From: Patescibacteria group bacterium
Lineage (GTDB): Bacteria > Patescibacteriota > Patescibacteriia > UBA2591 > UBA6264
Assembly (NCBI GenBank): GCA_028713575.1
Contig: JAQTOB010000002.1
Span: 1,371 to 65,370, forward strand
Direction: 5' to 3'
Length of the DNA stretch: 64,000 nucleotides
The notes under the pieces are model-generated. The model had not been told where the DNA came from. It did not search any database and saw only the letters and a list, made by a program, of their open reading frames with translations. Positions 7,866-60,107 of the stretch are shown here, piece by piece (position 1 is the stretch's first letter; each line of letters starts with the position of its first letter). The translations under genes were made by a program, and so were the position numbers.

Positions 7866-8330
7866 AAAAAATACACAGGGGAAAAAAATACACAGGTTCA
7901 ACCTGTGTATTTCTAACCTATGCATTTCTGATTTTAAAAGGTATGATATAATTAAAATATGGGTTGGATATAAAAAAATACACAGGTTGAACCTGTGTAT
8001 TTTTAATTTATGCATCTCTAATTTTTGACTTTTTGACCAGGGGACTGTCCCCAAAAGACGTCCTTCTACAATCCCCATTTTTGACCAGGGGACTGTCCCC
8101 AAAAGACGTCCTTCTACAATCCCCATTAGTGCTGGATTTTGGAACGATTTTTAAAAAATAGTCGAATATCGACTACTCTATATGAAATGAAAAAAGGCGT
8201 CAGGAACCTTTTAATGAGTAATCTTTTATAATATAATTAAAATATGGGTTGGATATAAAAAAATACACAGGTTGAACCTGTGTATTTTTAATTTTTTAAA
8301 AATAGTCGAATATCGACTACTCTATATTTA
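7866..8330. repeat. mosaic of short repeats between tRNA-Gln(TTG) and the next gene
   Basis: Four components read directly. A 27-bp palindrome aaatacacaggtt[g/c]aacctgtgtattt occurs three times (7886-7912, 7976-8002, 8261-8287). A perfect 64-bp direct repeat lies at 7946-8009 and 8231-8294. A 48-bp unit is tandemly repeated twice at 8030-8125. A motif tttaaaaa(a)tagtcgaatatcgactactctata containing a 17-bp palindrome occurs twice (8147-8183, 8293-8329). Confidence 0.85.
8030..8125. repeat. 2 x 48-bp tandem repeat tttttgaccaggggactgtccccaaaagacgtccttctacaatcccca
   Basis: Two identical adjacent units. Each unit is homologous to the 5' ~45 bp of the ~210-bp elements at 54385 and 56325. Confidence 0.85.
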
Positions 8331-8424
8331 AGAAAGAAGTTGTTTATTATTTTGTTTGCCGCCTTTTTTATTTTTTCTGAGGTGGTATAATAAAACTGGA
8401 TTAATAATTATTAATATTAATATT

Positions 8425-9525: not shown

Positions 9526-9539
9526 AAAAGATTTTAAAA

Positions 9540-23810: not shown

Positions 23811-24048
23811 TCCCGTGTACAAGATGAGTATATAGGTAACGCTTTTATTAGTCTGGGGTCTGACCCCTAAATTATGCCCCTAAAATAGTGATTAATAAAG
23901 CGTTTTAGAAAAAAAATTGAGATTTGTAACGATTTTGATTGATTTTATTTGATTCATTATACCACTCACCAAAAATAAAAATAAAAAAAAAAGACCAGGT
24001 AGCCTTTTAATTAATATAGATTAAAGGGATTAGACGTTTTTATTTTTT

Positions 24049-45459: not shown

Positions 45460-45463
45460 TTTA

Positions 45464-45685: not shown

Positions 45686-45691
45686 ATGTTT

Positions 45692-46486
45692 TTATTTAGC
45701 AGATAAATATACGTTTTTTAACAAATAAATCACGGTTAAAGGTCCAATTCCTCCGGGCACGGGCGAAAGATAATGTGTTTTTAAATGAATTTGAGAGTCA
45801 ACGTCGCCGACTGATTTCCCTTTTTTACCAGAGGCAGACCGATTATAGCCAACATCAATAATAACTGCATTTTTTTTTATCATAAAGGGCTTAAGAAAAT
45901 TAGGTTTCCCTAAAGCAACAATTAAAAAGTCCGCATTTTTAATTTTATTTTTTTTGAAATTTTTTAAATCAATGATTTCAACAATTAGTTTCTTTTTTTC
46001 CAAAATATTTTTTAAAGGATAAGTAAAAACAGGATTTTTTCCCAAAATGACAAATTTTTTATTTTTGAGTGGCCTTTCACTTTGTTGAATTAGTTTTAGG
46101 ACGGCTTGATAAACCGGAGAAATAAATTTTGTTTTTGGTCCAAATCCATCAACATCTTTTTGAGGAGAGATATTTTCTACCAAGACATCAGGATTAAATT
46201 TTTTTGGCAAGGGCATTTGAACAATCAAGCCGTGAAAATTTTTGTTTTGATTTATTTTTTTTATAACCGCAATTATTTTTTTTTGCGCAATTGAAGCAGG
46301 GAAACGAAAAAGCTTAAATTTCATTCCCAGTCGTTCAGCTGCTTTCTGTTTCAGCTTAACATAAATTAAAGAACCTGAGTTTTTTCCAATTAGAATAACA
46401 GCCAGGCCTGGTTTTTGTGGGCATTTTTTTATTTTATTTTTTAGCCCTTTTTCAATTTTTTTGGCCGTGTCTTTGCCGTATAACAT
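45692..46486 (-). CDS. folD: bifunctional methylenetetrahydrofolate dehydrogenase/cyclohydrolase
   Basis: …IGKNSGSLIYVKLK…PVPGGIGPLTV are FolD motifs. Confidence 0.85.
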   Translation of the reverse strand: MLYGKDTAKKIEKGLKNKIKKCPQKPGLAVILIGKNSGSLIYVKLKQKAAERLGMKFKLFRFPASIAQKKIIAVIKKINQNKNFHGLIVQMPLPKKFNPDVLVENISPQKDVDGFGPKTKFISPVYQAVLKLIQQSERPLKNKKFVILGKNPVFTYPLKNILEKKKLIVEIIDLKNFKKNKIKNADFLIVALGKPNFLKPFMIKKNAVIIDVGYNRSASGKKGKSVGDVDSQIHLKTHYLSPVPGGIGPLTVIYLLKNVYLSAK

Positions 46487-46487
46487 T

Positions 46488-47747
46488 TTATATCTTTAAT
46501 TTAGAATAGAGGGGGTGACTTCGCGCCAATTCTTTTACTTGTCGCGCGGTTTTTTTGAGAATTACCGGATTTTCCGGGTTGTAAACAACTTGACTGATTA
46601 ATTGGCCGATGATTTTCATTTCTTTTTCTTTAAATCCGCGTGTGGTCAGGGCTGGCGTTCCTAACCTGATTCCCGAGGGATTAAAAGGCGTCCGCTGGTC
46701 ATAAGGAATCATATTTTTATTAACATAAATACCAACCGCTTCTAAAGATTTCTCCGCTTGTTTGCCCGTTACTCCAGTTTTAGTTAAATCAACCAGAATT
46801 AAATGATTGTCTGTGCCGCCAGAAATAAGAGTTAAATTATTATCCTTTAACGATTGAGCTAAAGTTTTGGCGTTTTTTACAATCTGTCGGGCGTATTTTT
46901 TAAAACTCGGCAAAGAGGCTTCTTTTAATGCCACGGCAATAGCGGCGGTAGTGTGATTATGGGGTCCGCCCTGAAAACCGGGAAAAACGGTTTTATCAAT
47001 CATTTCCGCGTATTCTTTTTTACACATAATCATGGCACCCCGCGGTCCGCGCAAAGTTTTATGAGTAGTGGTAGTAACGATGTCAATAAAAGGAAAAGGA
47101 TTAGGATGAACGCCGCCGATAATCAGGCCGGCCAGATGGGCAATGTCCGCCATGCTAACAGCCTTGACTTTTTTGGCAATCTCGGCGAATTTTTTGAATT
47201 TAATTATCCGCGGATAAGCCGTAGCCCCGCAAATAATAATTTTCGGACGATATTTTTTCGCCAGTTTTTCCACTTCTTTATAGTCTATCAGATGATTTTT
47301 TGGATTGACGCCGTACTGAACAAAATTAAAGATGCGACCGGAAAGATTAACTTTATGCCCGTGAGTCAGATGGCCGCCATGCGCCAAGTTCATGCCCATA
47401 ATGGTGTCGCCGGGCTGTAACAAGGAAAAATAAATTTCTAAATTAGCCGGAGAACCAGAATATGGTTGGACATTGACGTGTTCGGCATAAAACAGCTTTT
47501 TAGCCCTTTCTATCGCCAATGTTTCTATTTCATCAATGAACTGATTACCCCCGTAATATCTTTTCCCGACATAGCCCTCTGAATACTTATTGGTGAGAGG
47601 GGACCCTAGGGCTTCTAAAACTGCTTCAGAAACGAAATTTTCAGAGGGAATCAATTCCAAGCCCTGTCTTTGGCGGTTTATTTCTTTTGCCAATGATTTC
47701 GCGATTTGGGGGTCTGTTTTTTTTAACATGGTTAAATTATATCTCAA
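46488..47747 (-). CDS. glyA: serine hydroxymethyltransferase
   Basis: THKTLRGPRGAMI, the PLP-lysine region, and the 419-aa length. Confidence 0.9.
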   Translation of the reverse strand: MRYNLTMLKKTDPQIAKSLAKEINRQRQGLELIPSENFVSEAVLEALGSPLTNKYSEGYVGKRYYGGNQFIDEIETLAIERAKKLFYAEHVNVQPYSGSPANLEIYFSLLQPGDTIMGMNLAHGGHLTHGHKVNLSGRIFNFVQYGVNPKNHLIDYKEVEKLAKKYRPKIIICGATAYPRIIKFKKFAEIAKKVKAVSMADIAHLAGLIIGGVHPNPFPFIDIVTTTTHKTLRGPRGAMIMCKKEYAEMIDKTVFPGFQGGPHNHTTAAIAVALKEASLPSFKKYARQIVKNAKTLAQSLKDNNLTLISGGTDNHLILVDLTKTGVTGKQAEKSLEAVGIYVNKNMIPYDQRTPFNPSGIRLGTPALTTRGFKEKEMKIIGQLISQVVYNPENPVILKKTARQVKELARSHPLYSKLKI

Positions 47748-47827
47748 ACAGTTATTTTGTCAATTAATATTGACAAAGTTTGAATTTTATGGCATATTTA
47801 TTATATATTTTAAGAAAAGGAGGAAAA

Positions 47828-48019
47828 ATGGGCACAAGAAAAAAAAATGAGGATGGCCTCTTGGTAGAGGCGTCCTCGCAAAAGCCCTATTCAAAGGGCT
47901 TTGACGATCGCATCAATGAAAGATGCGACTCAACGCCTCCTGAAGGCGTTGATTATTGGTGGTGGAAAATCCACTACCAACATGGGCAAGAGGATGCCCA
48001 GAAAATTTTGGACGAGTAA
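47828..48019 (+). CDS. hypothetical small protein (63 aa), relatively GC-rich
   Basis: A perfect SD AAGGAGG sits 6 nt before ATG 47828 (the ORF track begins at 47780). A strong terminator lies downstream. No recognisable motifs. Confidence 0.3.
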   Translation: MGTRKKNEDGLLVEASSQKPYSKGFDDRINERCDSTPPEGVDYWWWKIHYQHGQEDAQKILDE

Positions 48020-48031
48020 CTCATCTCGTCC

Positions 48032-48070
48032 AAAAAAAAGCTTCTGACCTCAGAAGCTTTTTTTATTTTC
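48032..48070 (+). terminator. intrinsic terminator
   Basis: aaaaaaaagcttctga-cc-tcagaagcttttttt is a perfect extended stem followed by a U-run. Confidence 0.7.
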
Positions 48071-48103
48071 TTTTTTTTGCTATACTATAATTTATACCAA
48101 GAA

Positions 48104-48175
48104 GCCGCTATCGTCTAGTGGTTAGGACACATGGTTCTCAGCCATGAAACCAGGGTTCGACTCCCTGTAGCGGTA
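48104..48175 (+). tRNA. tRNA-Glu (anticodon CTC), no encoded CCA
   Basis: Acceptor gccgcta/tagcggt (G1·U72), D-arm gtct-agtggtta-ggac, anticodon stem catgg/ccatg with loop ttCTCag, T-arm caggg-ttcgact-ccctg, discriminator A. Confidence 0.8.
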
Positions 48176-48234
48176 TTTATTGCCTTAATTTATATTTAAT
48201 TTATAATATAAGTATTATTCATAAACATAAACAT

Positions 48235-48732
48235 ATGCCTCATGAAATAAAAGAACATCCGATTTCTTCAGAGATTCCTCAACCAGAGTCTTCTTTAGAA
48301 ACCCCGTCTTCTTTAGAAAAAAAAGAACAAGAATCAAAATTTATTGAACCGGCGAAAACGGATGAGATTTTAAAAAAAATAAAAAAAGCTTTACCGGGGA
48401 TTAAAACCAAACTAACCACTACTATTGTCAAAGAAAAAAGCCAAACAGTGAAAGAAATAGAAAATATTTTATCCGAAGACATGAATGAGATTTATCAGAA
48501 TTTGTCGCCAGACATTAAGCAGGAATTTAAAAGAAGGGGCGAAGAGACGGCGTTTAAAATAGAACAATTGATTTGTCAGGTTAAAATCGCGGTTTATAAA
48601 ATAGTGGATTTAATTAAACAATGGCTATTAATTGTGCCGGGGGTGAATAAATTCTTTTTAGAACAAGAAACAAAAATAAAAACAGATAAAATTTTAGCTT
48701 TATCGGAAAAGGAAAAAAAGAATAAAGTTTAA
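48235..48732 (+). CDS. hypothetical charged protein (165 aa)
   Basis: Lys/Glu-rich, no TM and no recognisable motifs. It precedes the VirD4/TraG-like ATPase. Confidence 0.35.
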   Translation: MPHEIKEHPISSEIPQPESSLETPSSLEKKEQESKFIEPAKTDEILKKIKKALPGIKTKLTTTIVKEKSQTVKEIENILSEDMNEIYQNLSPDIKQEFKRRGEETAFKIEQLICQVKIAVYKIVDLIKQWLLIVPGVNKFFLEQETKIKTDKILALSEKEKKNKV

Positions 48733-48742
48733 TTAATATAAT

Positions 48743-51292
48743 ATGGGGTTAGATATTTATTCAAATATTTTGTATTGGCGCGAGCGAGGATTTTTTAATC
48801 TTAAATTTTGGCTCCCTTTTTTTGTTTTAATATTATTTTTAATTTTATTCTTCTTTTTAAAAAAATATTTAAGAAGGTCGGCTCAATATAAGTTTTCTTT
48901 TCAGCGCGCCATTCTTTTAGTCACGGTGCCTAAGATAAAAATGGATAAAGAAGAAAAAGAGAAAACCCCCAAAGAAATGTTGCAACCAATAGAAAATTTT
49001 TTTGATAACATTGGCGGATTAAAAGCACAAAAAGGATTTAAAACTTGGTTTTTAGGCCGTTCAGACCATTTTTCTTTTGAAATACTTTCAGACAAGCAGG
49101 GTATTATTTCTTTTTATGTGGTCGTGCCGCGAAATTTGCAAACGTTTTTTGAACAACAAGTTCACGCGCAATATCCAGCGGCGCAAATAGAAGAAGTAGA
49201 TGACTATAATGTTTTTTTACCCCACGGAGAAGTTGTTTGCGCCAGTCTTACCTTAAGAACTTATTCCATGTTCCCAATTAAAACCTATAATAAGACAGAA
49301 ACTGATCCTTTAAATGCCATTACTAATTCTTTGAGCCGAATTGCGGAGGAAGATTCAGCCGCGATTCAAATTATGGTTCGTTCGGCTCAGTCAGGTTGGC
49401 GTCAACCCGGCATCAAAGTTGCCCTAGAAATGCAACAAGGCAAAAAATTATCAGAGGCGCTAAAAAATATGAGCGGAGGTTTATCAAAATTTTTTAGTTT
49501 TTTAACCGATTTTATTTTTCCCAAATCGCAAAAAAAACAAGATAAAGAATTAGATAAGCCGCATCAACTTTCACCCATGGAACAAGAAGTCGTTAAGACC
49601 ATTGAAGAAAAGGCGAGCAAGGCCGGAATGGATGTAAATATTAGAATTGTGGTTTCTGCCCGCGATAAAGGATTGGCTGAAAGCTATTTAGATAACATTG
49701 TTAATGCTTTTGCCCAATATACGGGTTATGAATACGGCAATGGATTTAAAAAAGCAAAAATGAATAAAAACGAGATTATTAGGAATTTTATCTACCGGAA
49801 TTTTAATGAGAATATAAGTTTTGTTTTAAACACAGAAGAAATGGCCAGTATTTATCATTTTCCATTGCCGACAACAGAAACGCCAAATATTCGTTGGTTA
49901 ATGGCGAAAAAAGCGCCGGCGCCGATTAACATTCCGCACGAAGGCTTGTTTTTAGGTTACAATATCTATCGCGGTCAAAAGACAGCCATTAAAATTAAAA
50001 GAGAGGACCGTCGTCGACATATGTATGTTATTGGTATGACCGGTACAGGCAAATCTTGGTTTGCCGAAGGCTTGGCTATGCAAGATATTGCCAATGGCGA
50101 GGGTATCTGCTTTATTGACCCGCATGGAGACGCTATTGGTCATATTTTAGAAAGAATTCCCAAGAATAGAGCCGAAGACGTAATTCTTTTTGACCCGGGC
50201 GACTTAACTCGGCCATTAGGATTGAATATGTTAGAATATGATTTTTCAGAACAAAAAACTTTTGTCATTAATGAAATCATGAATATTTTTGACAAGCTTT
50301 ACGATTTGCGCGCAACCGGTGGTCCGATTTTTGAACAATATTTTAAAAACGCTTGTCATTTGGTTATGGATGATATAGCTTCAGGTTCTACTTTATTGGA
50401 AATTCCTAAAGTTTTAGCTGATGATGAATTTAGAAGATATAAGCTTTCCAAATGCAAAACCTTAATGGTTAAAGAATTTTGGGAAAAACAAGCTTTAAAG
50501 GCGGGGGGTGAAGCTTCTTTACAAAATATGGTTCCTTATATTACTAGTAAATTGACACCGTTTTTGACTAATGAATTTATGCAACCTATTATTTCCCAGC
50601 AAAAAAGCAGTTTGAATTTTAGAGAGGCCATGGATAATAAAAAAATAATTTTAGCTAAATTATCTAAAGGTAAAATTGGTGATACCAATGCCTATTTGTT
50701 GGGAATGATTATTGTTGGCAAGATTTTAATGTCTGCTTTGAGTCGTGGAGATATGCCGGAAGAAAAAAGAAATGATTTTTATTTATACATTGATGAATTT
50801 CAAAACTTTTTAACCGAAAGTATGCAGGTCATTTTATCCGAAGCGAGAAAATACCGTTTATGTTTGAATATTATTCACCAGTACATCGGCCAGTTGGTTA
50901 AAAATAGTGATACTAAATTTAAGGACTCCATTTTTGGCAACGTGGGGACAAAAATAGCCTTTCGTATCGGCGTGGACGATGCTGAAGATTTGACTAAAGA
51001 ATTTGCCCCGGTTTTTAATGAATACGACTTTTTAAATATGCCTCAATATAGCGCTTTTGTAAAACTTTTGATTGACAATGCCAATCCGCCGGGTTTTAAT
51101 ATTTCTACGGTTCCTTTTGACCAAATCCCCGGAGTGCCACCGGCTAATCCGGAAATCGCAAAAATTATTAAGGAATTATCTCAATTAAAATACGGCAAAA
51201 CTTTACCCATGATTGAACGGGAAATAAGTCAAAGAAGTCAAATTATTAATCAATTAAAGCAAACAACAGATGGTAATTTATCGCAAATATAG
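48743..51292 (+). CDS. membrane-anchored P-loop ATPase, VirD4/TraG/TrwB coupling-protein-like (or HerA/FtsK-like)
   Basis: N-terminal TM helix, Walker A GMTGTGKS and Walker B FYLYIDEFQNF. The C-terminal region …LCLNIIHQYIGQL… resembles the TraD/TraG C-terminal domain. Confidence 0.5.
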   Translation: MGLDIYSNILYWRERGFFNLKFWLPFFVLILFLILFFFLKKYLRRSAQYKFSFQRAILLVTVPKIKMDKEEKEKTPKEMLQPIENFFDNIGGLKAQKGFKTWFLGRSDHFSFEILSDKQGIISFYVVVPRNLQTFFEQQVHAQYPAAQIEEVDDYNVFLPHGEVVCASLTLRTYSMFPIKTYNKTETDPLNAITNSLSRIAEEDSAAIQIMVRSAQSGWRQPGIKVALEMQQGKKLSEALKNMSGGLSKFFSFLTDFIFPKSQKKQDKELDKPHQLSPMEQEVVKTIEEKASKAGMDVNIRIVVSARDKGLAESYLDNIVNAFAQYTGYEYGNGFKKAKMNKNEIIRNFIYRNFNENISFVLNTEEMASIYHFPLPTTETPNIRWLMAKKAPAPINIPHEGLFLGYNIYRGQKTAIKIKREDRRRHMYVIGMTGTGKSWFAEGLAMQDIANGEGICFIDPHGDAIGHILERIPKNRAEDVILFDPGDLTRPLGLNMLEYDFSEQKTFVINEIMNIFDKLYDLRATGGPIFEQYFKNACHLVMDDIASGSTLLEIPKVLADDEFRRYKLSKCKTLMVKEFWEKQALKAGGEASLQNMVPYITSKLTPFLTNEFMQPIISQQKSSLNFREAMDNKKIILAKLSKGKIGDTNAYLLGMIIVGKILMSALSRGDMPEEKRNDFYLYIDEFQNFLTESMQVILSEARKYRLCLNIIHQYIGQLVKNSDTKFKDSIFGNVGTKIAFRIGVDDAEDLTKEFAPVFNEYDFLNMPQYSAFVKLLIDNANPPGFNISTVPFDQIPGVPPANPEIAKIIKELSQLKYGKTLPMIEREISQRSQIINQLKQTTDGNLSQI

Positions 51293-52367
51293 GCCAAAAA
51301 CTTTTAAGGAAGTAATTGGTCAAGAAAACATTGTGCAAATTTTAGAAAACGAAATTAAAAGTGATAAAGTTGCTCATGCTTATCTTTTTACCGGACCTCG
51401 CGGTTTAGGTAAAACCACTTTATCAAGATTAATGGCCAAAGCAGTTAATTGTTTAAATAGAAAAAACGGAGAATCAGAACCATGTAATAAATGCGACCAT
51501 TGTCAAAGCATCAACAATAATCGTTTTATAGATTTGATTGAACTTGATGCCGCTTCACAAACGGGGGTGGATAATGTGCGAGAAAACATTATTGCTTATT
51601 CAAGAATTCCTCCGGCTCAAGGCAAATACAAAGTTTTTGTCATTGATGAATGCCACATGCTTTCTTTGTCCGCCTTTAATGCCTTGTTAAAAATATTAGA
51701 AGAGCCGCCTAAATATGTTATTTTTATTCTTGCTACTACAGAAATTCATAAATTGCCAGAAACCATTATTTCTCGATGCCAGAGATTTGATTTTAACAAA
51801 GTGAGCATGGAAAAAATTGTGCAAAGAATGGAAACAATTATGAAGCAAGAGAAAATAAAAGTGGATAAAAAAGTTCTTCAAAATATCGCTAGTCGTTCTG
51901 AAGGTTGTGTCAGGGATGCGGAAAGTCTTTTAGGTCAATTAATGTTTTTAAATGATAAAAATATTACCGAAAAAGAGGCCAGTCTGATTTTGCCTTTGGC
52001 TCAGACCGATGCTATTGTCAAATTTTTGCAATTTATTTTTAAAAAAGACAAAACCGAAGCGGTTAAATTAATTAATGAACTTTTAGAACAGGGGATAAAC
52101 TTGGACCAATTTGTCGTTGATTTAATAGAATTTTTAAGAAAGATTATGCTGATTAAAATCAAGGCGGTTAATAAAGATTATTGGCTCCAAGATGAAAATT
52201 TTCAAAAAAAAGCAGACGAAATGGCGGGAAAAACAGAATTAAAAACCTTAATTTCTGCCCTTGATGTCTTTATCAAAACCAAAATTCAACTGGGTTACAG
52301 CGAAATTCCGCAGTTGCCTCTGGAACTGGCTGTTTTAAAAATTTGCGAAGAAGCACAGCCTAAATAA
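51270..52367 (+). CDS. dnaX: DNA polymerase III subunit gamma/tau (short form)
   Basis: GPRGLGKTT P-loop, Zn-module CNKCDHC and SRC arginine finger. At 365 aa it contains only domains I-III. Confidence 0.85.
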   Translation: MVIYRKYRPKTFKEVIGQENIVQILENEIKSDKVAHAYLFTGPRGLGKTTLSRLMAKAVNCLNRKNGESEPCNKCDHCQSINNNRFIDLIELDAASQTGVDNVRENIIAYSRIPPAQGKYKVFVIDECHMLSLSAFNALLKILEEPPKYVIFILATTEIHKLPETIISRCQRFDFNKVSMEKIVQRMETIMKQEKIKVDKKVLQNIASRSEGCVRDAESLLGQLMFLNDKNITEKEASLILPLAQTDAIVKFLQFIFKKDKTEAVKLINELLEQGINLDQFVVDLIEFLRKIMLIKIKAVNKDYWLQDENFQKKADEMAGKTELKTLISALDVFIKTKIQLGYSEIPQLPLELAVLKICEEAQPK

Positions 52368-52510
52368 TAAATAAAAACAAGCCATGGCCCACAACGGGCG
52401 ACGCCTGTTTTTAGTAGATACTATGAATAATAGTATCTGAATATAGAATAACAATTTGACACAAAAGGTCAAGCGCTAATCTGTGGGGAACTAAAACTAG
52501 TTAACTTTCC

Positions 52511-53692
52511 ATGAAAACAAACGTTGACGAAAAACAAATTAAAGGATTATTAACTCGAGGAGTTAATGAAGTAATTGATTTTAGTCATTTAAGAAAACGT
52601 TTGTTATCGGGAGAAAAATTAAGAATCAAATTAGGCATTGACCCTACCAGCCCTCATATTCATTTAGGAAGGGCGGTTTCTCTTCTTAAATTAAGAGATT
52701 TTCAAAATCTTGGGCACAAGGTGGTATTTATTATTGGCGATTTTACTGGTGTTGTTGGCGACACTTCTGACAAAGAAAGCGAACGCCCCATGCTTTTTAA
52801 AAAACAGGTGGAAGAGAATATGAAAACGTATATCAGGCAAGCTGGGAAAATTTTAGACATGGAAAAAACCGAAATTTGTCATAATTCTACGTGGCTAAAA
52901 AAACTTGGCTATGAAGAAATAGGAAAACAGGCGAATCAGTTTTCTTTAGCTGAGTTCATCAATCGGGAAAACATTAAAAAGCGACTAAACTTGGGGACCA
53001 GGGTTTCTTTAAGAGAACTTCTTTATCCTTTAATGCAGGGATATGACAGCGTTGAAGTGAAAGCTGACGTGGAGCTCGGGGGAACAGACCAGAGATTTAA
53101 TTTGCTGGCAGGTCGGACCTTGCAGGAATATTATGGTCAAAAACCTCAGGACGTAATGATGACTAATCTTATTTTAGGTACGGACGGCAGAAAAATGAGT
53201 TCCAGTTGGGGTAATACTATCAATATTGTGGACAAACCAAGTGAAATGTTCGGTAAAATAATGAGTTTAACCGATGATTTAATCATAACCTATTTTGAAC
53301 ACTGCACCCGGGTTGATATGGATAAGGTGAAAAAATATAGCGAAGAATTGAAGGCCGGTAAAAATCCCAAAGATGTCAAAATGGATTTAGCTTATGAGAT
53401 TACCAAGATATACTGGGGAGAAAAAAAATCAGAAGAAGCCAAAGATTATTTCATCACTGTTTTTCAAAAAAAGGGAATTCCGCAAGAAATATCGAAAATG
53501 AAATTGGCGAACAAAAATATTCTTGAGATTTTGGTTTTAAGTAAATTGGCAAAAAGTAAAAGCGATGCCAGAAGGCTAATAGGTCAAAAAGGCGTAACAG
53601 TTGATGGAAAAACAATAGAATCAACAGAAGAAACAGTTAAAAAGGGTAGCATTATCCAAAAAGGAAAAAGATATTTTGTAAAAATCATTTAG
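52511..53692 (+). CDS. tyrS: tyrosine--tRNA ligase
   Basis: HIGH-like PHIHLG, a KMSSS variant of KMSKS, GGTDQRFN, and a C-terminal S4-like RNA-binding domain. Confidence 0.8.
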   Translation: MKTNVDEKQIKGLLTRGVNEVIDFSHLRKRLLSGEKLRIKLGIDPTSPHIHLGRAVSLLKLRDFQNLGHKVVFIIGDFTGVVGDTSDKESERPMLFKKQVEENMKTYIRQAGKILDMEKTEICHNSTWLKKLGYEEIGKQANQFSLAEFINRENIKKRLNLGTRVSLRELLYPLMQGYDSVEVKADVELGGTDQRFNLLAGRTLQEYYGQKPQDVMMTNLILGTDGRKMSSSWGNTINIVDKPSEMFGKIMSLTDDLIITYFEHCTRVDMDKVKKYSEELKAGKNPKDVKMDLAYEITKIYWGEKKSEEAKDYFITVFQKKGIPQEISKMKLANKNILEILVLSKLAKSKSDARRLIGQKGVTVDGKTIESTEETVKKGSIIQKGKRYFVKII

Positions 53693-53725
53693 ATGCCGGG
53701 TCGTCTAACTTGCCCCGCCAATTTT

Positions 53726-54061
53726 ATGTCATATCTTTATATTTTAAAAAATAGATTAGGCAGGCATTATATCGGGATTACTAAATTAGAACCAAGAGAA
53801 AGATTAAAACGACATAATCAAGGAGACGTTTATTCAACAAAATCCGGGAGGTCCTGGAAAATAATTTGTCTAGAAAAATTTGAAACTCTTAAAGAAGCAA
53901 GAGAAATGGAAAAAATGATAAAGAGATGGAAAGGCGGAAATGCATTTAAAAAGTTTCTCTGCAAAACTGCCGGGTCGTCTAATGGCAGGACAACGGATTC
54001 TGGCTCCGTTTATCTTGGTTCGAATCCAAGCCCGGCAGTTTTGCAGAAAAACAAGATATAA
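53726..54061 (+). CDS. GIY-YIG nuclease family protein (YhbQ/UPF0213-like). The ORF reads through tRNA-Gln(CTG) before reaching a stop
   Basis: MSYLYILKNRLGRHYIGIT…RLKRHN…EAREMEKMIKRWKG covers the GIY/YIG/Arg/Glu motifs. The last ~30 codons are encoded by the tRNA gene itself. The ORF track begins at 53693. Confidence 0.55.
   Translation: MSYLYILKNRLGRHYIGITKLEPRERLKRHNQGDVYSTKSGRSWKIICLEKFETLKEAREMEKMIKRWKGGNAFKKFLCKTAGSSNGRTTDSGSVYLGSNPSPAVLQKNKI
53968..54038 (+). tRNA. tRNA-Gln (anticodon CTG), no encoded CCA
   Basis: Acceptor tgccggg/cccggca. A 19-nt block gtcgtctaatggcaggaca is identical to tRNA-Gln(TTG). Anticodon stem acgga/tccgt with loop ttCTGgc, T-arm cttgg-ttcgaat-ccaag, discriminator G. 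Confidence 0.8.
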
Positions 54062-54259
54062 ATTTGGCGGGGTGAACAGGACAACGGATTCTGGCTTCGT
54101 TTATCTTGGTTCGACTTGTCCCGTTAAAGGCGGGAATCCAATCTTGGCAGCCATCCTTCGCCAAGGCTACGAAATGGCTAAAACTATGTTGTTGTATTTG
54201 TTGCTTTGAATTTTAGGTAGTCCGGAACTTTAGTGAAGGATACCAAGCCCGGCAGTTTT
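54062..54259 (+). pseudogene. disrupted second tRNA-Gln copy and duplicated tRNA 3' end (att-like direct repeats)
   Basis: 54077-54114 matches tRNA positions ~20-57 (37/38) and is preceded by a D-arm-deleted remnant tggcggggtgaa. 54243-54259 repeats the tRNA 3' end ccaagcccggcagtttt exactly (17/17). A ~128-bp unrelated insert separates the two pieces, and a scrambled gggaatccaatcttggcag lies at 54132-54150. Confidence 0.6.
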
Positions 54260-54384
54260 TTATTGCTTCCGTTCCTCAAAACCTTCAGCCCGCTATATAA
54301 ATAGCGACGAAGACACTGATGCTGAGGGAAGCGCCGACGAACGAGAGTGAAGAGGGACTGAGCTTAACAGAGCGAATGTAATTA

Positions 54385-54597
54385 ACTTAAGAAAGGGGTC
54401 TGTCCCCAAAAAATGCCTTTCTAAAATCCTTATCAGTGTTGGATTTTAAGACGATTTTTAAAAAATAGTCGAATATCGACTACTTTAGAAAAATTAAATT
54501 CACCAAAATGGGACCGCCTTTGGAAAATGGCATACAGGGGCCGGACATAGATTTTTTAAAAGTCAGACCCCTTAAAGGGAAGATTGAGGAGGTTTAA
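54385..54597. repeat. ~210-bp conserved structured repeat element, copy A
   Basis: It is ~96% identical to 56325-56528. The 10-bp terminal inverted repeat (possible P1 stem) is aaggggtctg (54393-54402) / cagacccctt (54564-54573). Internal hairpin aaatcc…ggattt. A 17-bp palindrome tagtcgaatatcgacta lies at 54466-54482. It ends with an RBS-like gaggagg just before the downstream ORF. Confidence 0.85.
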
Positions 54598-54774
54598 CAT
54601 CTGATGTGATGGTGAGTACCTACGAGGTGAGACCTCGTAGGGGTGATGAAAAATTCCCGTTTTTGTTTTTTGGCCCAATTTCGCCTCTATCTTTTACAGG
54701 GTCGCCACTTTTTATTGAGGTATATAAAAATACGAAATTATTTAAATAATTTGCGGATTAAAAAATTTAATTTT

Positions 54775-55107
54775 ATGAAAACAATCAAATGGTTTGCTCG
54801 AATAATCGCATTATGTATTCTGGTGTTCGCTTTGCCGTTTTATTTTGGCTACGGTAATCCATTGCCGTTTGCTAATCCGAATTATTCTTTGTGGGAGAAT
54901 GTTGCACTATCTATGATGCCACTGGTTTTTATCGGTTTAGCCTTGGGCTGGAAGTATCCAAAAATCGCAGGCTGGCTTATTATTAGTGCAATTGCAATTG
55001 GTTTTATCGTTGGACTTTTAACAGAAGCAAACCTCAGTATCAATCTGGCAGTTCCTATCATTCCAGGAATTTTGTATTTAATAGATGGGTATAAAAAAAA
55101 TGAATAA
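54775..55107 (+). CDS. hypothetical small membrane protein (110 aa)
   Basis: ATG 54775 gives MKTIKWFARIIALCILVFALPFYFG… with 3-4 TM helices. The upstream in-frame extension from 54643 overlaps the repeat element and looks non-coding. Confidence 0.4.
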   Translation: MKTIKWFARIIALCILVFALPFYFGYGNPLPFANPNYSLWENVALSMMPLVFIGLALGWKYPKIAGWLIISAIAIGFIVGLLTEANLSINLAVPIIPGILYLIDGYKKNE

Positions 55108-55276
55108 ATATATTAAGATAATACTTTCTATTCTGGCGGTATTATTCGGGTTATTTTTAATTGTATTTGGCGGATACGATGACAGTCCTGGAGCACAAGG
55201 ACTTGGACTTATATTAGTTATTACTACAGTCATTATCGTAATTAGAAGCAGAAAGAAAAACAACAATCCACTATGA
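55085..55276 (+). CDS. hypothetical small membrane protein (63 aa)
   Basis: Two TM helices and a basic C-terminal tail. Confidence 0.3.
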   Translation: MGIKKMNKYIKIILSILAVLFGLFLIVFGGYDDSPGAQGLGLILVITTVIIVIRSRKKNNNPL

Positions 55277-56289
55277 TTTTTGAGCATTCATCAAAAAACA
55301 AAAAGGTATTATTGTTTATTTTTATAACTATTTTAATGATAGGTGTTTTTTTGTCTTTATATTCGTCAGTCATCTTTCAAGAAGGCAATCCTTGGCCACA
55401 AATCAAAGGAATGGTTCAATTAAAATTTGGCGATAGTGATATTGTGAAGTTGTCGGGTTCAGATAATAAATTTATGACCGAAAGTAAAAACGGGACCATG
55501 ATACATAATTTCATGAAAACCAAAGGATACGAATTTACCGAGCAAATGGGTTCAGGTTACTTCTTCAAATCTTCTACAGGACAAAGCGCCATTGCCACTC
55601 ATAAATATTACACTCGTTATTATTCGCTTTGGACTATTACCGAAAATAACAATTTCCAAACTGACAACGATCTGTGGGCGATGACTACCGATAACAACGG
55701 AGCAACCTTTCAATATCCAAAAGAGTTATTGGCCAAATATATTAGTATTGTAGAGTGGCCGCCGACAGTTAAGGTGGAATTTGGCAGTTTCTCTTGCGTT
55801 GAGACGCCACAAGAAAAAAGCAGTATGCTTGAAATAACCAGTCAGAGATTGGTTGATGATAGAATTTACTGCGTTAATGTTAAAAATGAGGGAGCGGCGG
55901 GAAGTGTTTATTCTTCCTATGTTTATACGACTCCCAGGAGAGGAAAACTGGTTTCGGTTAGCTTTGTCTTGCGCTATACGAATTGTGCCAATTATGACGA
56001 GGAGCAGAGTCAGGCCTGTACAAGCGAGCGCGAGGCTTTTGATTTTGATGCGACAGTGGATCGCATAGTCCAGACTGTTAAATGGGATTCAGCTTTAAGT
56101 GAAGACACCTTATTTAATCAAATAGCTAAATGTTTGGTATCAAGTCGGTCGGAAGATCAGGAAAAATGCGATGAATTTTTGAAACAGATTAGCGATTTTG
56201 ATTCCTGCGTAATGGCTGGTTTCTCCATAATGAAATCAAACCCTCTCCAGTGCGCCACGCCAGACGGCCGAATCTTTATTCAAAAGTGA
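55273..56289 (+). CDS. hypothetical secreted or membrane-anchored Cys-rich protein (338 aa)
   Basis: N-terminal signal/anchor. The C-terminal 30 aa CVMAGFSIMKSNPLQCATPDGRIFIQK are homologous to CVNAGYPIMESYPRQCITSDGQIYVEE in the protein at 8425-9045. Confidence 0.45.
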   Translation: MIFEHSSKNKKVLLFIFITILMIGVFLSLYSSVIFQEGNPWPQIKGMVQLKFGDSDIVKLSGSDNKFMTESKNGTMIHNFMKTKGYEFTEQMGSGYFFKSSTGQSAIATHKYYTRYYSLWTITENNNFQTDNDLWAMTTDNNGATFQYPKELLAKYISIVEWPPTVKVEFGSFSCVETPQEKSSMLEITSQRLVDDRIYCVNVKNEGAAGSVYSSYVYTTPRRGKLVSVSFVLRYTNCANYDEEQSQACTSEREAFDFDATVDRIVQTVKWDSALSEDTLFNQIAKCLVSSRSEDQEKCDEFLKQISDFDSCVMAGFSIMKSNPLQCATPDGRIFIQK

Positions 56290-56324
56290 AATAAGTAATT
56301 TTTCGGTATAATAGACTCAAGAAA

Positions 56325-56528
56325 GGGGTCTGTCCCCAAAAAATGCCCTTCTAGAATCCTTATCAGTGTTGGATTTTAAGACGATTTTTAAAAAATAGTC
56401 GAATATTGACTACTTTAGAAAAATTAAATTCACCAAAATGGGACCGCCTTTGGAAAATGGCATACAGGGGTCGGACATAGATTTTTTAAAAGTCAGACCC
56501 CTTAAAGGGAAAATTGGGGAGGTTTGAC
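56325..56528. repeat. ~210-bp conserved structured repeat element, copy B
   Basis: Same element as 54385-54597. A TATAAT lies at 56307-56312 just upstream. The internal palindrome carries one mismatch (tagtcgaatattgacta, 56396-56412). It ends in an RBS-like ggggagg before ORF 56546/56588. Confidence 0.85.
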
Positions 56529-56587
56529 CTCAGTAATATAGGGACGTGACAGGGTTCGGCCCAGCAAATTATTGTAAAATAATATAC

Positions 56588-57034
56588 ATGAACAAAATAA
56601 CGCTCCATAATCAATGGGTTGTCAAAGCTCCCATAAATGATGTATTCAGAATAATGACCGACTTTGAAAAATTTCCGAAGAATTTTCCAAAGGTTGCTGA
56701 ATCAATACAGATTAATAAACGGGAAGGAAATTATTTGGGAATGGACGCAACCGTAAAATCATTCGGCAAAAGGTTTCAAGTAAAGATGAAAACTCAAATC
56801 CTCCCAGGGAAGGGCTTTATCTCAGATAATGACAGTTATCAGTTTGGGACTTCCGGACATGAAGAGCTGCTGCTTTCCGAACACGTTGAAGGAACTTTAA
56901 TTGACTATACCTATCAGGTCACCATTCATAAAAAATGGCTGAGTATAATCGCTGTACCTCTGCTGCGCTGGTATTCAATGAAATACTGGGAAAAGGCGGT
57001 TATTGATCAGCTTAAAAAGACCCTTGAGAAATAA
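56588..57034 (+). CDS. SRPBCC-superfamily (polyketide cyclase/START-like) protein
   Basis: MNKITLHNQWVVKAPINDVFRIMTDFEKFPK… is typical of the Bet v1/SRPBCC fold. Start chosen at ATG 56588, as the ORF track's 56546 start lies inside the repeat. Confidence 0.55.
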   Translation: MNKITLHNQWVVKAPINDVFRIMTDFEKFPKNFPKVAESIQINKREGNYLGMDATVKSFGKRFQVKMKTQILPGKGFISDNDSYQFGTSGHEELLLSEHVEGTLIDYTYQVTIHKKWLSIIAVPLLRWYSMKYWEKAVIDQLKKTLEK

Positions 57035-57077
57035 TTGAAAGTAGGAGTATGCAGGGGTTCAATTCCTACATTTTTTC

Positions 57078-57106
57078 TTGACAAATTTTTATTTTTATCG
57101 TATAAT
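57078..57106 (+). promoter_or_regulatory. consensus sigma70-type promoter
   Basis: TTGACA (57078-57083), 17-nt spacer, TATAAT (57101-57106). Confidence 0.5.
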
Positions 57107-57195
57107 ATAATTGTTAGATTAAAAGATTCCTAAAAGGGGAGTTTTTTAATTCAAGGTCGATCTTTAACAAGTTAAAGCAAAAAAGAGGCACGCCT

Positions 57196-57465
57196 ATGGC
57201 TTTATTTTTTATTGGCATTTTGGAGATGATTATTGTCACCACCTGGACTAAAGTCGTAACCCGGACGAAGATTATCGCAAGCGGAATAGTTACCTTAATC
57301 AACATTTTGATTTGGTATTATGTTTTAGAGACAATTGTTAACGATATTAACAATTGGCGTTTAGTTCTCTTGTATGCTTTTGGTTGTGCTCTGGGTACGA
57401 TGTTGACGACTTTTTATTTCGCCAACAGAGAAAAAACAGGGCAAGCGGAAAAGAAGCTAGAATAA
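57196..57465 (+). CDS. hypothetical small membrane protein (89 aa)
   Basis: Three TM helices, with a terminator downstream. Confidence 0.35.
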   Translation: MALFFIGILEMIIVTTWTKVVTRTKIIASGIVTLINILIWYYVLETIVNDINNWRLVLLYAFGCALGTMLTTFYFANREKTGQAEKKLE

Positions 57466-57536
57466 CATTATTTTAGTCTTTGTGCTTATGACACCAGAAG
57501 ATTCATTGCCGAATAGTCGCAAGACAATCGGTAACT

Positions 57537-57575
57537 AAAAATCGCTTTTATTATATGTAAAGCGATTTTAGTTTT
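57537..57575 (+). terminator. intrinsic terminator
   Basis: Stem aaaatcgcttt / aaagcgatttt with a 10-nt loop, followed by a U-rich run. Confidence 0.55.
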
Positions 57576-57612
57576 AAATAAAATGTGTTATAATGTTAAA
57601 AATTTTAATAAT

Positions 57613-58434
57613 ATGTCAAAAAAAATTGTTGATTTCGTAAAAATCGCCTGGTATGGTAAACATTTTGGCGAAGAACCTCCTTTGGTTGGAAAAAGGGGAG
57701 CAGGCGCCATATTTTTTACTGGTTGCAATTTAAGATGCATTTATTGCCAAAATTTTCAAATTTCTCAACAAGGTTTAGGCAAAAGGTATAATCTTAAAGA
57801 ATTTATTGACATAATGCTAAAATTACAAAAGGAAAGGGCCCTGAATATAGACTTAGTTACGCCGACCATCTGGCGTAAACAAATAAAACAAGCGGTTATT
57901 TTAGCCAAAAAAAAGGGATTGAAGATTCCGATTGTTTGGAATTCAAACGCTTATGAAGAAGTTGATGATTTAAAAGAAATGGAGGGATTGGTGGATATTT
58001 ATTTGCCGGACTTTAAATATAGCGATGATAATTTGGCTTTTAAATATTCCGGAGCAAAGAATTATGTTACTAAAGCAACGGCGTCAATCAAAGAAATGCA
58101 GCGCCAAGTTGGCAACTTAAAAACATTTAAGGGCATAGCGGAAAAAGGGATAATCGTTAGGCATTTAATTTTGCCAAATCAGGCAAAGAATAGTTTGAAT
58201 GTTTTAAAAATCATCAAAAAAATTGATAAAGATATTATGGTGAGCTTGATGACGCAATACGAACCGGTTCACAAGGCGAAGGATTTTTCAGAAATAAACA
58301 GAACAATAAATAAAAAAGAATTCAATGAAGTTTTAAATTACTTTTTATTTTTGAATTTTAAGAACGCCTGGATTCAAGAGCGGGGAAGCCACCATATTTT
58401 TTTGCCTGATTTTAATAAAAAAAATCCTTTTTAA
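57613..58434 (+). CDS. radical SAM protein, PflX-like (COG1313; pyruvate formate-lyase-activating-enzyme homologue)
   Basis: …YGKHFGEEPPLVGKRGAGAIFFTGCNLRCIYCQNFQIS carries the CxxxCxxC cluster. The ORF track opens at 57583, and ATG 57613 is preferred because an extended -10 TGtTATAAT sits at 57586-57594. Confidence 0.65.
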   Translation: MSKKIVDFVKIAWYGKHFGEEPPLVGKRGAGAIFFTGCNLRCIYCQNFQISQQGLGKRYNLKEFIDIMLKLQKERALNIDLVTPTIWRKQIKQAVILAKKKGLKIPIVWNSNAYEEVDDLKEMEGLVDIYLPDFKYSDDNLAFKYSGAKNYVTKATASIKEMQRQVGNLKTFKGIAEKGIIVRHLILPNQAKNSLNVLKIIKKIDKDIMVSLMTQYEPVHKAKDFSEINRTINKKEFNEVLNYFLFLNFKNAWIQERGSHHIFLPDFNKKNPF

Positions 58435-58478
58435 AAAACAAATTTTATGTTATAATAATTTTTTATGATTAAAAATAT

Positions 58479-59213
58479 ATGAATACTTTAATTTGGATAA
58501 TTATTTCCGCTTTTATTATTAGCTTAACAGCTTGGGTCGGTTTAATTACTTTAATTTTAAAAGAAGAAAAATTAAAAAAAATTCTTTTACCCTTAGTGGC
58601 TTTTTCCGCCGGCTCTTTAATCGGTGGCGCTTTTTTACACTTGATTCCTGAAGCCCTGGAAAGAGAAGGTTCTGAAAATGTCTTTTTTTGGCTTTTAATC
58701 GGATTTTTAATTTTCTTTTTAATGGAACAATTTTTGCATTGGCATCATTGCCACCGAGTTCCTTCTGAACATAAAAAGCCGGTAACTTATTTAATTCTTA
58801 TTTCTGACGGCATTCATAATTTTATTGACGGCATGATTATTGCCGGCTCTTTTTTAATTAATGTAAAGATGGGGATTATTACTTGGTTGATTTGCTTAGG
58901 TCATGAAATTCCCCAGGAAATAGGGGAATTTGGTATTTTACTCCATGGCGGATGGAAAAAATATAAAGCCCTGTTATTCAATTTTGTTTCCGCCTTAATG
59001 ATTATTCCCGGCGGGCTTTTCGTTTATTTTATTTCTCAAGAAATCAATACGACTTTCTTGCTTTCTTTCGCTGCTGGCAATTTTATTTACATTGCAGCTT
59101 CTGATTTAATCCCAGAAATAAAAACAGGAGAAAATTTAAAAAAAAGTTTAAAACACTTTTTCTTTTTCATCCTTGGTATTTTATTTATTTTTTTAATTGG
59201 CATGATTGAATAG
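58479..59213 (+). CDS. ZIP-family divalent metal (zinc) transporter
   Basis: HEIPQEIGEFGILL ZIP signature and an 8-TM layout. Confidence 0.8.
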   Translation: MNTLIWIIISAFIISLTAWVGLITLILKEEKLKKILLPLVAFSAGSLIGGAFLHLIPEALEREGSENVFFWLLIGFLIFFLMEQFLHWHHCHRVPSEHKKPVTYLILISDGIHNFIDGMIIAGSFLINVKMGIITWLICLGHEIPQEIGEFGILLHGGWKKYKALLFNFVSALMIIPGGLFVYFISQEINTTFLLSFAAGNFIYIAASDLIPEIKTGENLKKSLKHFFFFILGILFIFLIGMIE

Positions 59214-59264
59214 AGGCCAATTTTCCTTTATTAAAAGTTATTTAATTAATAATAATTTAATATT

Positions 59265-60107
59265 ATGAATAATGAATTTGAAAACAAAATTTTTGAAGAC
59301 TTAACCCAAGAACAAATGTTTTCTAAAGCGAAAAAAGTTATTCAAAGAGAAGAAATAAAACCCCGTGATTTTAAGGACCTTTATGGCGAAGATAATGTAC
59401 AAATTGACGAACAATACGTGGAAAGAATGGAAAGAATATTTAAACAAGAAGAAAAACCGGAACAAAAAAAAATAAATCAGTTGGCGACTATTTTTGAAGC
59501 AGTTATTTACGAACATGGTGAATTAAGCGATTGGTTCGGACCAGACGCTTATATGATTAAATCTTCCCGTTATGATGACATAAAAAACGGCGTAGACAGT
59601 GTAATAGAGTTTAGAGAAGATGAGCGCGCAGCCTCCCATTTGGCTTTGGCCGTTGATGTCACTTTTAGTTCGGATACACAAAATAAATTTAAAAGAATAA
59701 AAAAAGAAATTGATAACGGCCAATTGGCTAAAGTTAAATATTTTTGCTCAGAACATTTGAGTATTAGAGGAGAGTTAAGCCATTTGCCTCGTGTAATAAT
59801 CGGCGCCGGGGCTAAAACCGTCAATGAATTAGGAGAATTGTGGATAGAAGAAAAAAACAAAAAATTAGGCAATCATCATATTCAATTTCAGATTTTAGAA
59901 GAGATATTAATGCAAATGAAAGCTTTTGCCAAATATGCCAAAACAAAGAAACAAAACGAAATCGCGGATACTTATGAAAAAACAGCTAAAATGATTGAAA
60001 AGATATATCAAAATAAAAAAGAGAATTTAAAAGACGATGGAGAAAGGGATGAGATTTTTTATCATCTTAAGGATTTGGTAAATTTCTTTGACCTTTTTTC
60101 TGATTAA
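59265..60107 (+). CDS. hypothetical soluble protein (280 aa)
   Basis: No TM and no recognisable motifs. It lies immediately upstream of the ECF sigma factor gene. Confidence 0.4.
   Translation: MNNEFENKIFEDLTQEQMFSKAKKVIQREEIKPRDFKDLYGEDNVQIDEQYVERMERIFKQEEKPEQKKINQLATIFEAVIYEHGELSDWFGPDAYMIKSSRYDDIKNGVDSVIEFREDERAASHLALAVDVTFSSDTQNKFKRIKKEIDNGQLAKVKYFCSEHLSIRGELSHLPRVIIGAGAKTVNELGELWIEEKNKKLGNHHIQFQILEEILMQMKAFAKYAKTKKQNEIADTYEKTAKMIEKIYQNKKENLKDDGERDEIFYHLKDLVNFFDLFSD

Follow-up and report, generated by a model that had tools for sequence, protein, structure and literature searches.

We analysed a 64,000-nt stretch of low-GC (34%) DNA (the window; positions 1,371 to 65,370 of contig JAQTOB010000002.1, GCA_028713575.1) from a Patescibacteria metagenome-assembled genome (MAG), of which positions 45273-60037 are 99.8% identical to contig JAQTSZ010000001.1 of GCA_028711035.1. 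A repeat finder recovered two 223-nt copies of a noncoding element, A (54379-54601) and B (56309-56531), which lie 1930 nt apart in direct orientation, match at 212 of 223 positions (95%), and bracket a block of three genes encoding a DUF7670 membrane protein, a 63-residue membrane protein, and a 338-residue secreted protein. The original prediction, made by eye from the sequence, had described this pair as a structured element of about 210 bp and offered a riboswitch-like leader, a miniature inverted-repeat transposable element (MITE), and an operator module as explanations. The pair and its identity (given as ~96%) hold, but the partner of 54385-54597 in register is 56315-56527, not 56325-56528. 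The window also contains a partial copy, C (~8030-8190), which carries the tandem amplification that had been noted, a perfect 48-nt duplication (8030-8077 / 8078-8125), together with a 48-nt fragment, D, that is 88% identical to 8147-8194, and a diverged fifth copy, E, which had been overlooked and was found in an arm-profile search of the window. The element is probably a noncoding repeat from the left arm of a RAYT/TIRYT-type transposase unit endemic to Minisyncoccales-like Patescibacteria, and the window holds left arms that lack the transposase gene: A, B, C, the fragment D, and the older copy E.

An alignment of four copies showed the 210-nt unit to be composite. Only its 5' ~90 nt, common to A, B, and C, is conserved, and D keeps the inner ~40 nt of this; the 3' ~117 nt is present in A and B only. 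Within the arm, the internal hairpin is present as placed by the original prediction, and the 17-nt palindrome TAGTCGAATATCGACTA recurs as claimed, exactly in A, C, and D and with one mismatch in B (Table 1). The palindrome has seven matches at ≤3 mismatches on both strands of the window against 0.08 expected, and the outer-hairpin motif GGGG-N3-7-CCCC occurs 6 times against 1.9 expected. The 10-nt inverted repeat that had been read as the element's termini (AAGGGGTCTG, 54393-54402; CAGACCCCTT, 54564-54573) is present, with the same pair in B, but it does not bound the unit, as the A/B similarity runs past it by ~14 nt on the left and ~28 nt on the right. A TATAAT box does precede B (56307-56312), but A has GTAATT at that place. 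The ribosome-binding sites (RBSs) placed directly upstream of start codons proved to lie elsewhere: GAGGAGG in A is ~185 nt from the called start at 54775 and is followed by an ATG-TGA and an unsupported open reading frame (ORF) of 47 residues, and GGGGAGG in B (56516-56522) is 66 nt from the ATG at 56588. Nor does every copy lie 3' of a tRNA-Gln gene, which is contradicted by copy E and by five arms on another contig described below. Start codons follow the arms at anything from 0 to ~320 nt, and the genes 3' of the arms are unrelated (DUF7670, SRPBCC, secreted protein, transposase). All five arms in the 64 kb are on the + strand, on which GC skew is positive throughout.

Exact-palindrome scans of genome and metagenome collections, in which the invariance of the palindrome among the matches is an ascertainment effect, returned the ~90-nt module in a few low-GC contigs (contigs are given L numbers). 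Four of these, L001, L002, L004, and L005, are from one organism (MAG CAZHDT01) and contain three copies within 2.1 kb; L006 has two copies and L007 has one. An exact 20-nt match to the palindrome in a high-GC soil contig (L003, 378-397) has an unrelated context and is probably due to chance or an unrelated operator. In the module, ~58 nt of partly conserved sequence separate the outer hairpin GGGGACTGTCCCC from TTTTTAAAAAA and the palindrome, 3' of which the sequences diverge. In L006, an ORF of 200 aa begins 10 nt 3' of the palindrome and matches Y1_Tnp (IS200-like/RAYT; Pfam, E=6e-16); we refer to it as RayT. The motif GTAGTCGAAATAGTTCTAAATT stands 3' of its stop codon and is also found ~135 nt past the palindrome in L001, where the transposase gene is absent.

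The contigs of eight distinct homologue loci, reached through protein similarity, were then examined. Upstream of all eight transposase genes, and in register, are a GGGG-N5-CCCC hairpin, a homologous stretch of ~57 nt (e.g., TTCTACAAAT...TTTTAGACGG), a T/A run, and the inner motif, and in seven of the eight loci the gene stands between inverted arms. A profile of the left-type module, whose training set contained no right (inverted) arms, matched an inverted arm just past the RayT stop in L006 (E=2e-10), L017 (E=1e-9), L018 (E=2e-9), L009 (E=1e-3), L023 (E=9e-13), L026 (E=3e-7), and L028 (E=1e-5), and it also matched untrained left arms in L022, L024, L026, and L028. To judge from these sequences, the full unit comprises an outer GC hairpin (GGGGWCWGWCCCC), ~58 nt, the inner motif, the gene for a 200-aa Y1/HUH transposase, and an inverted arm of ~95 nt. 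The right arms carry a degenerate form of the inner motif, and all solo copies are of the left-arm type. The palindrome belongs to the left arm in one subgroup, since L022/L023, which were reached by protein alone (79% identical), have an identical copy before the ATG and the GTAGTCGAAATAG motif past the stop; they are the sole unbiased confirmation of this point. In L024, the second copy is direct rather than inverted and precedes the next gene at an equal distance from its ATG. The arm upstream of the L024 transposase (9901-10700, GCA_964531505.1) overlaps the 3' end of a preceding TPR gene; the label of this assembly, "uncultured Gammaproteobacteria," looks wrong for its low-GC, Patescibacteria-like content.

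A profile was built against circularity from 11 arms, all from protein-anchored loci, none with the palindrome, and with no window sequences. Against the 64-kb window, it matched C (E=2.5e-12), A (4e-12), and B (5e-12) on the + strand at nearly full length, as well as copy E (9e-8) and 8040-8081 (2e-4), and nothing else comparable in the 64 kb. These matches indicate that the window arms are homologous to the repeats that flank RayT genes. With the matches in the other contigs, arms are present in the window, on L030, and in at least seven other genomes, in which they always adjoin a RayT gene.

No RayT gene lies inside the window (tblastn). The L006 protein, P0001, is encoded on the 3957-bp contig JAQTSZ010000042.1 (L030) of GCA_028711035.1, the assembly that also carries the window region, and its left arm there has the same palindrome, 10 nt before the ATG. 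L030 contains five arms, namely, an arm that precedes a lipoprotein gene, the left-right pair flanking RayT, and two near the contig end, where three tandem outer hairpins are followed by a full arm, the RayT start with its first ten codons, and then directly another full arm. Since a solo arm still carries the first ten RayT codons, the solo arms descend from the left arm of the transposase. A 14-nt tandem duplication (ATAAAAAGGGGACT) in the left arm, at its outer end, distinguishes L006 from L030, which are 99% identical; this duplication resembles the 48-nt one in copy C, and the outer ends are evidently unstable.

A search with P0001 returned 182 homologues at E≤1e-10, nearly all of 199-202 aa and 50-79% identical, several of them labelled Patescibacteria or "REP element-mobilizing transposase RayT." The HUH motif (N61-H62-x-H64), G97-H98, R103, and Y121 (in YIDLN) are kept in 20 homologues, with H62, H64, and Y121 invariant in 20/20. 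These residues are the catalytic set of Y1 enzymes, and RayT looks catalytically intact. The scores of 65-67 bits on NCBIfam REP_Tyr_transpos (cut-off 80) and 19.6-22.4 bits on transpos_IS200 (cut-off 55) place the homologues nearer, by sequence, to the transposases associated with repetitive extragenic palindromic (REP) elements than to IS200 TnpA. A single-sequence search of PDB structures with RayT gave no match; in a profile search, the sole solved relative was E. coli TnpA-REP (4ER8, E=9e-6). No helix-turn-helix (HTH) domain was detected in the 200-aa protein by domain searches.

Table 1. Arms, tails, and fragments of the repeat in the window
Feature	Coordinates	Strand	Description
Tandem duplicate of copy C outer ~48 nt	8030..8081	+	hairpin 8040-8052; 100% identical 48-nt direct repeat of 8078-8125; profile match 8040-8081, E=2e-4
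Copy C arm	8087..8176	+	outer hairpin GGGGACTGTCCCC 8088-8100; palindrome 8159-8175; E=2.5e-12; three hairpins, z=-3.7
Fragment D, inner arm end only	8291..8338	+	TTTTTTAAAAA, exact palindrome 8303-8319, CTCTATAT
Copy E, diverged solo arm	23851..23944	+	outer hairpin GGGGTCTGACCCC 23855-23867; TTGAGATTTGTAACGATTTTGAT replaces the palindrome; E=9e-8, profile positions 3-97
Copy A arm, left-arm type	54393..54484	+	outer hairpin GGGGTCTGTCCCC 54395-54407; middle hairpin TCTAAAATCC 54420-54429 / GGATTTTAAGA 54441-54451; palindrome TAGTCGAATATCGACTA 54466-54482; nhmmer, independent profile, E=4e-12, profile positions 7-94; single-stranded DNA fold of three hairpins, z=-4.3
Copy A tail	54485..54601	+	shared with B only; GAGGAGG 54586-54592; 112/117 identical to B tail
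Copy A tail, degenerate hairpin-like motifs	~54510, ~54538, ~54563	+	TGGGACCGCC, GGGGCCGGAC, GTCAGACCCC, respectively
Copy B arm	56323..56414	+	outer hairpin 56325-56337; palindrome 56396-56412, one mismatch; E=5e-12; 89/92 identical to A arm
Copy B tail	56415..56531	+	duplicate of A tail

The TTGAGATTTGTAACGATTTTGAT of copy E is the ancestral form of the inner motif. Copy E is flanked by two minus-strand genes, faces away from both, and lies between the members of a 62-nt repeat (23749-23810 / 24148-24209; 89% identity), which on the minus strand is a textbook promoter and RBS (TTGACA, 17 nt, TAAGAT, AAGGAGG) preceding two small membrane-protein genes. Copies C and D are interleaved with a mosaic of local duplications that extends over 7850-8340, 3' of tRNA-Gln(TTG), and includes three copies of a 29-31-nt hairpin AAAAATACACAGGTT(G/C)AACCTGTGTATTTTT (7884-7912, 7974-8004, and 8259-8289) and a 68-nt unit duplicated at 99% identity (7942-8009 / 8227-8294). 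The secreted proteins adjoining arm B (55273-56289) and arms C/D (8425-9045) have in common a 45-residue Cys-containing segment, CV.AG..IM.S.P.QC.T.DG.I (44% identity, E=3e-10), which is C-terminal in one and N-terminal in the other.

Enzymes of the REP/RAYT and IS200/IS605 groups bind hairpins in single-stranded DNA and cut beside them (PMC3479197, PMC6006769). By analogy, RayT, the product of an apparently single-copy gene on a different contig, would bind the arm hairpins where the DNA is single-stranded, as in replication forks. By cutting and rejoining the DNA at these sites, it would spread or rearrange the arms in trans, their outer ends being prone to small tandem duplications. Beyond the established homology of the arms to transposase flanks, the RayT in the same genome, the multiple arm copies, and the conserved HUH and tyrosine residues, we infer from these related enzymes that RayT may bind, cleave, and mobilise the arms and may affect neighbouring genes. 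Arms occur solo, in tandem, and as one transposase-less pair, and a fragment of the gene is attached to one of the solo arms. The solo arm with the RayT 5' fragment, the 14-nt strain difference, and a GIY-YIG gene truncated at an arm are indirect hints, read from sequence, of mobilisation. The transposase-less pair (L001 5179-5471, with 130 nt between the arms) is a mini-unit in a genome other than that of the window. Beside it, the GIY-YIG gene (L005 3762-4112, equivalent to L001 5030-5200) ends after ~53 residues exactly at the arm start, and its missing C-terminal part was not found beyond the mini-element; just upstream are a 3' remnant of tRNA-Gln and then a downstream hairpin like that of the window, CCCGAGCCATAAAYCAGAACGAAGTTC. 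With its positive GC skew, the + strand corresponds in sequence to the template for lagging-strand synthesis, which the Y1 enzyme family prefers, and the all-plus-strand arms are compatible with the strand bias of single-strand transposition.

Several points weigh against derivation from a transposase unit whose arms still move. The strand bias rests on about three independent loci, and we found no transposition event, empty site, or target-site signature; the search for empty sites that the original prediction had suggested ended with relatives anchored on TyrRS that are either non-syntenic downstream or, in Logan contigs, break off inside the tRNA-Gln region. A clean insertion of an arm into the L005/L001 GIY-YIG gene was considered and dropped, the rest of the gene being missing. 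The copy number is modest, the window containing 5 arms and 6 occurrences of the outer hairpin motif, and the copies cluster at few loci, unlike classic REPINs. RayT itself falls below the NCBIfam equivalog cut-off (65 versus 80 bits), and its neighbours are constant in some lineages (Wzy_C-TPR-RayT-glycosyltransferase in L024 and L028). Domesticated, vertically inherited RAYTs were described by Bertels et al. (PMC5581495), which matches these constant neighbours, and with a domesticated gene the arms could be fixed sites for binding or regulation and not mobile DNA. Nor does derivation from the transposase unit account for the A/B tail. A more ambitious extension of the transposase-unit origin, which we regard as speculative and would sooner doubt than accept, is a living REPIN-like partnership in these ultra-small Patescibacteria genomes, in which a vertically inherited single-copy RayT would keep the ~90-nt three-hairpin arms moving by single-strand cut-and-paste, and some of them would have been recruited as portable operators or insulators for accessory genes of membrane and secreted proteins at tRNA-Gln hot spots.

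One alternative is a cis-regulatory RNA, that is, a 210-nt riboswitch-like leader or small RNA whose P1 stem would form from the 10-nt inverted repeat and which would control the downstream gene. The 223-nt unit does fold beyond shuffled sequences on the + strand (minimum free energy, -59 kcal/mol; z=-3.3), and three hairpins form in the ~90-nt left arms of the palindrome subgroup when these are folded as single-stranded DNA (z=-3.7 to -5.4), but most other arms form the outer one only, and the minus strand of the unit folds nearly as well (z=-2.8), as palindrome-rich DNA would be expected to do. In a structural alignment of 29 distinct homologous arms, RNAalifold retained the 5-bp outer hairpin alone, with four (near-)invariant G-C pairs and a fifth pair that is A-T (15), T-A (10), or C-G (1); of the cells at the outer hairpin, middle hairpin, and palindrome of copy A, 96.6%, 58%, and 66%, respectively, were paired. 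The P1 partner and the supposed RBS are confined to the A/B tail. The multi-stem fold with covariation and the fixed position before a gene that mark a riboswitch were not found in the 29 arms. Rfam searches returned nothing but tRNAs and noise, whether run with gathering thresholds or relaxed to E≤10. The riboswitch reading is not supported, given that a family-wide fold and an Rfam match are lacking, that arm-to-start distances vary, and that the downstream genes are unrelated; with Shine-Dalgarno-like boxes 66-185 nt from real start codons and copy E between opposite-strand genes, regulation by an RNA is largely refuted, and we give it next to no credence. Around the copies, promoter-like counts (10 versus 8.1 and 5 versus 4.4) and terminator-like counts (4 versus 2.3 and 2 versus 0.4) were near those of shuffled sequences. 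A minus-strand promoter match, TCGACT-18-TAAAAT, was not conserved, being absent from the arms of other genomes. A coding role was rejected, as two minus-strand ORFs share just a repeat-encoded C terminus, and an integron attC site, a dif/Xer site, and a sigma-54 promoter were dismissed by eye (no nearby recombinase, wrong spacing, no R'/R'' cores).

A regulatory role at the DNA level can coexist with an origin from a transposase unit. Here the palindrome, and perhaps the outer GC palindrome, would bind a dimeric protein, either RayT as an autorepressor or a host regulator, and solo arms would control or insulate neighbouring accessory genes. The operator module of the original prediction gains from the position of the palindrome, 10-22 nt upstream of the RayT ATG in L006/L030 and L022/L023, where the promoter must be, and from its identity in two genomes whose RayT proteins are just 79% identical, L022 having been found by protein homology. 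Promoter-like boxes occur at the same position elsewhere (TTGAGA-16-TATAAT in L017 and TGATATAAT in L018), both palindromes are perfect, as operators often are, and L024 has an arm before two successive genes at equal ATG distance. It suffers from the near-chance promoter counts in the window copies, the spread of arm-to-start distances, the orientation of copy E away from both neighbours, the lack of a detected HTH in RayT, and the degenerate motif of the right arms, and we hold such a role to be unlikely. A segmental duplication of intergenic DNA and nothing more, in which A and B would be local direct repeats unconnected with any mobile element, seems less likely still, indeed very improbable. 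In its favour, A and B share 223 nt, including a tail for which BLAST found no homologue in any fetched locus, and the C/D region is a mosaic of local duplications (repeat families D5-D7); yet it accounts for the A/B pair alone, and the arm recurs in C, in E, on another contig, and beside RayT in at least seven other genomes. Because the association of arm and RayT spans genomes, segmental duplication is refuted as a complete explanation, but it stands for the sharing of the tail by A and B: most simply, the pair arose when an arm and the debris beside it were duplicated locally and recently. Within this 117-nt tail, GGGGCCGGAC lies at the palindrome distance expected for the outer hairpin of a right arm, and GTCAGACCCC supplies one side of the 10-nt inverted repeat. 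The tail was nevertheless rejected as an inverted right arm, as the left arm against its reverse complement gave p~0.02 with an equal direct-orientation control, and neither true right arms (p=0.17-0.26) nor the transposase unit (p=0.65) resembled it significantly.

Other features of the region concern the tRNA-Gln genes and further palindromes. The reading frame of a GIY-YIG ORF (53693-54061; Pfam E=3e-14) continues straight through a tRNA-Gln(CTG) that is itself intact (53967-54039), and a degenerate second tRNA-Gln (54060-54114; 97% identical over 38 nt) has a 3' end, CCAAGCCCGGCAG, that recurs at ~54243 after an insertion of ~130 nt in the T-loop region. Within 53693-54260, Logan assemblies of this organism break (L032-L034). 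L007 (Ga0163210_1009198) is orthologous to window positions 6921-8400 (glycosyltransferase, GIY-YIG, and tRNA-Gln[TTG]) and has 1.9 kb of extra genes between the tRNA and the arm, namely, a membrane protein, methyltransferase fragments, and a Phd/RelE-like pair. The region 3' of tRNA-Gln appears to be a hot spot for variable DNA. Long near-perfect palindromes between runs of A and T form two further families, AAAAAAGTTTGGGAACTTAGTTCCCAAACTTTT and ACTTCTTGCAGGTCGCACCTGCAAGAAGT, which each occur twice, kilobases apart (1950-1982 / 9536-9568 and 22665-22694 / 28683-28712, respectively), and look like shared bidirectional terminators.

Most described repeat families of the RAYT/TIRYT type are from Proteobacteria, Acidobacteria, and similar phyla. 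A conserved family in the streamlined Patescibacteria, with 182 homologues of a 200-aa transposase and flanking arms, widens the range of domesticated transposases, and a candidate undescribed riboswitch is replaced by a concrete, testable assignment. Arm loci explain assembly breaks in such genomes and should be masked before structured-RNA searches in them, and the outer hairpin and inner palindrome are defined DNA substrates for biochemistry.

Among known systems, a classical MITE mobilised by a DDE transposase does not fit the element. The MITE-like proposal was right in that this is a noncoding repeat from the flank of a transposase gene, but the enzyme is of the Y1/HUH RAYT type, not DDE, and the conserved unit is an arm of ~90 nt rather than 210 nt of DNA between inverted repeats: the 10-nt inverted repeat sits inside the A/B repeat, ~14 and 28 nt from its ends, and other copies lack its right-hand partner. 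No target-site duplication or flanking direct repeat was found at A/B, and no outward promoter was evident. IS200/IS605 elements and their miniature derivatives (PATEs) belong to the same Y1/HUH superfamily; the unit here is ~900 bp long and, like IS200, has a hairpin near its left end just before the transposase start, and the mini-unit of L001 corresponds to the transposase-deleted derivatives. The ends here are, however, inverted repeats, which those of IS200/IS605 are not, RayT, at ~20 bits, falls short of the 55-bit cut-off of the IS200 model, and its gene neighbours are constant in some lineages.

The REP/REPIN-RAYT systems (Nunvar 2010; PMC3116915; PMC5581495; PMC3479197) share with it an apparently single-copy transposase, constant neighbours in some lineages, flanking extragenic sequence that is repeated in the genome, and hairpin-forming repeats; the only solved relative of RayT is TnpA-REP. 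In contrast to these systems, no 20-40-nt REP with a free 5' GTAG/GTGG beside the hairpin foot is apparent: the outer hairpin lacks an adjacent GTAG, and the inner palindrome, which reads GTAGTCGATATTCGACTA on the minus strand, and the right arms, which start with GTAGTCGAAATAG, have TAG within the stem. The arms are about three times the length of a REP, inverted pairs away from the transposase are rare (one seen, that of L001), and the high copy number of REPs is not seen in the 64-kb window, the five arms there being in one orientation.

The closest match is with the TIRYTs of Di Nocera et al. (2013; PMC3733652), RAYT-like genes with terminal inverted repeats (TIRs) instead of REPs that form units called TIRtrons. 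Their TIR motif is GGGGWSAS, and some TIRs are moderately abundant families occurring as singles, dimers, and groups (PMC3733652); Quentin et al. (2018; PMC6006769) equate TIRYTs with their subclass 2.1 and give the motif as GGGG[AT][CG]A[CG]. Here, too, a RAYT-like Y1/HUH gene is flanked by inverted repeats and not by GTAG-type REPs, and the flanking repeats occur elsewhere in the genome in moderate numbers as singles, pairs, and clusters. The outer hairpins (GGGGACTGTCCCC, GGGGACAGTCCCC, GGGGTCAGACCCC, and GGGGTCTGACCCC) read GGGGACAG or GGGGTCAG on one strand, which is of the GGGGWSAS type, with slight deviations in L017 (GGGGCCAG) and on the + strand of window copies A and B (GGGGTCTG, the - strand being GGGGACAG). 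The unit differs from known TIRtrons in its arms of ~90-95 nt, one subgroup of which has three hairpins including a perfect 17-nt AT-rich palindrome, in a 200-aa protein without the detectable C-terminal HTH or DnaA_C that most subclass 2.1 members have, in solo copies that are all of the left-arm type, and in its Patescibacteria host. None of the RAYT/REPIN papers retrieved mentions Patescibacteria, and a 2026 preprint mentions RAYT only in an archaeal neighbour of a gene related to the candidate phyla radiation. The sequence-level features that define TIRYTs and TIRtrons, namely, a RAYT-like gene in the same genome, inverted flanks, the GGGGWSAS motif, and homology between the flanks and the dispersed repeats, are all present. 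The element is therefore not a new class of structured RNA; RAYT/TIRYT-associated repeats are a known class, of which this is a new member in a new phylum.

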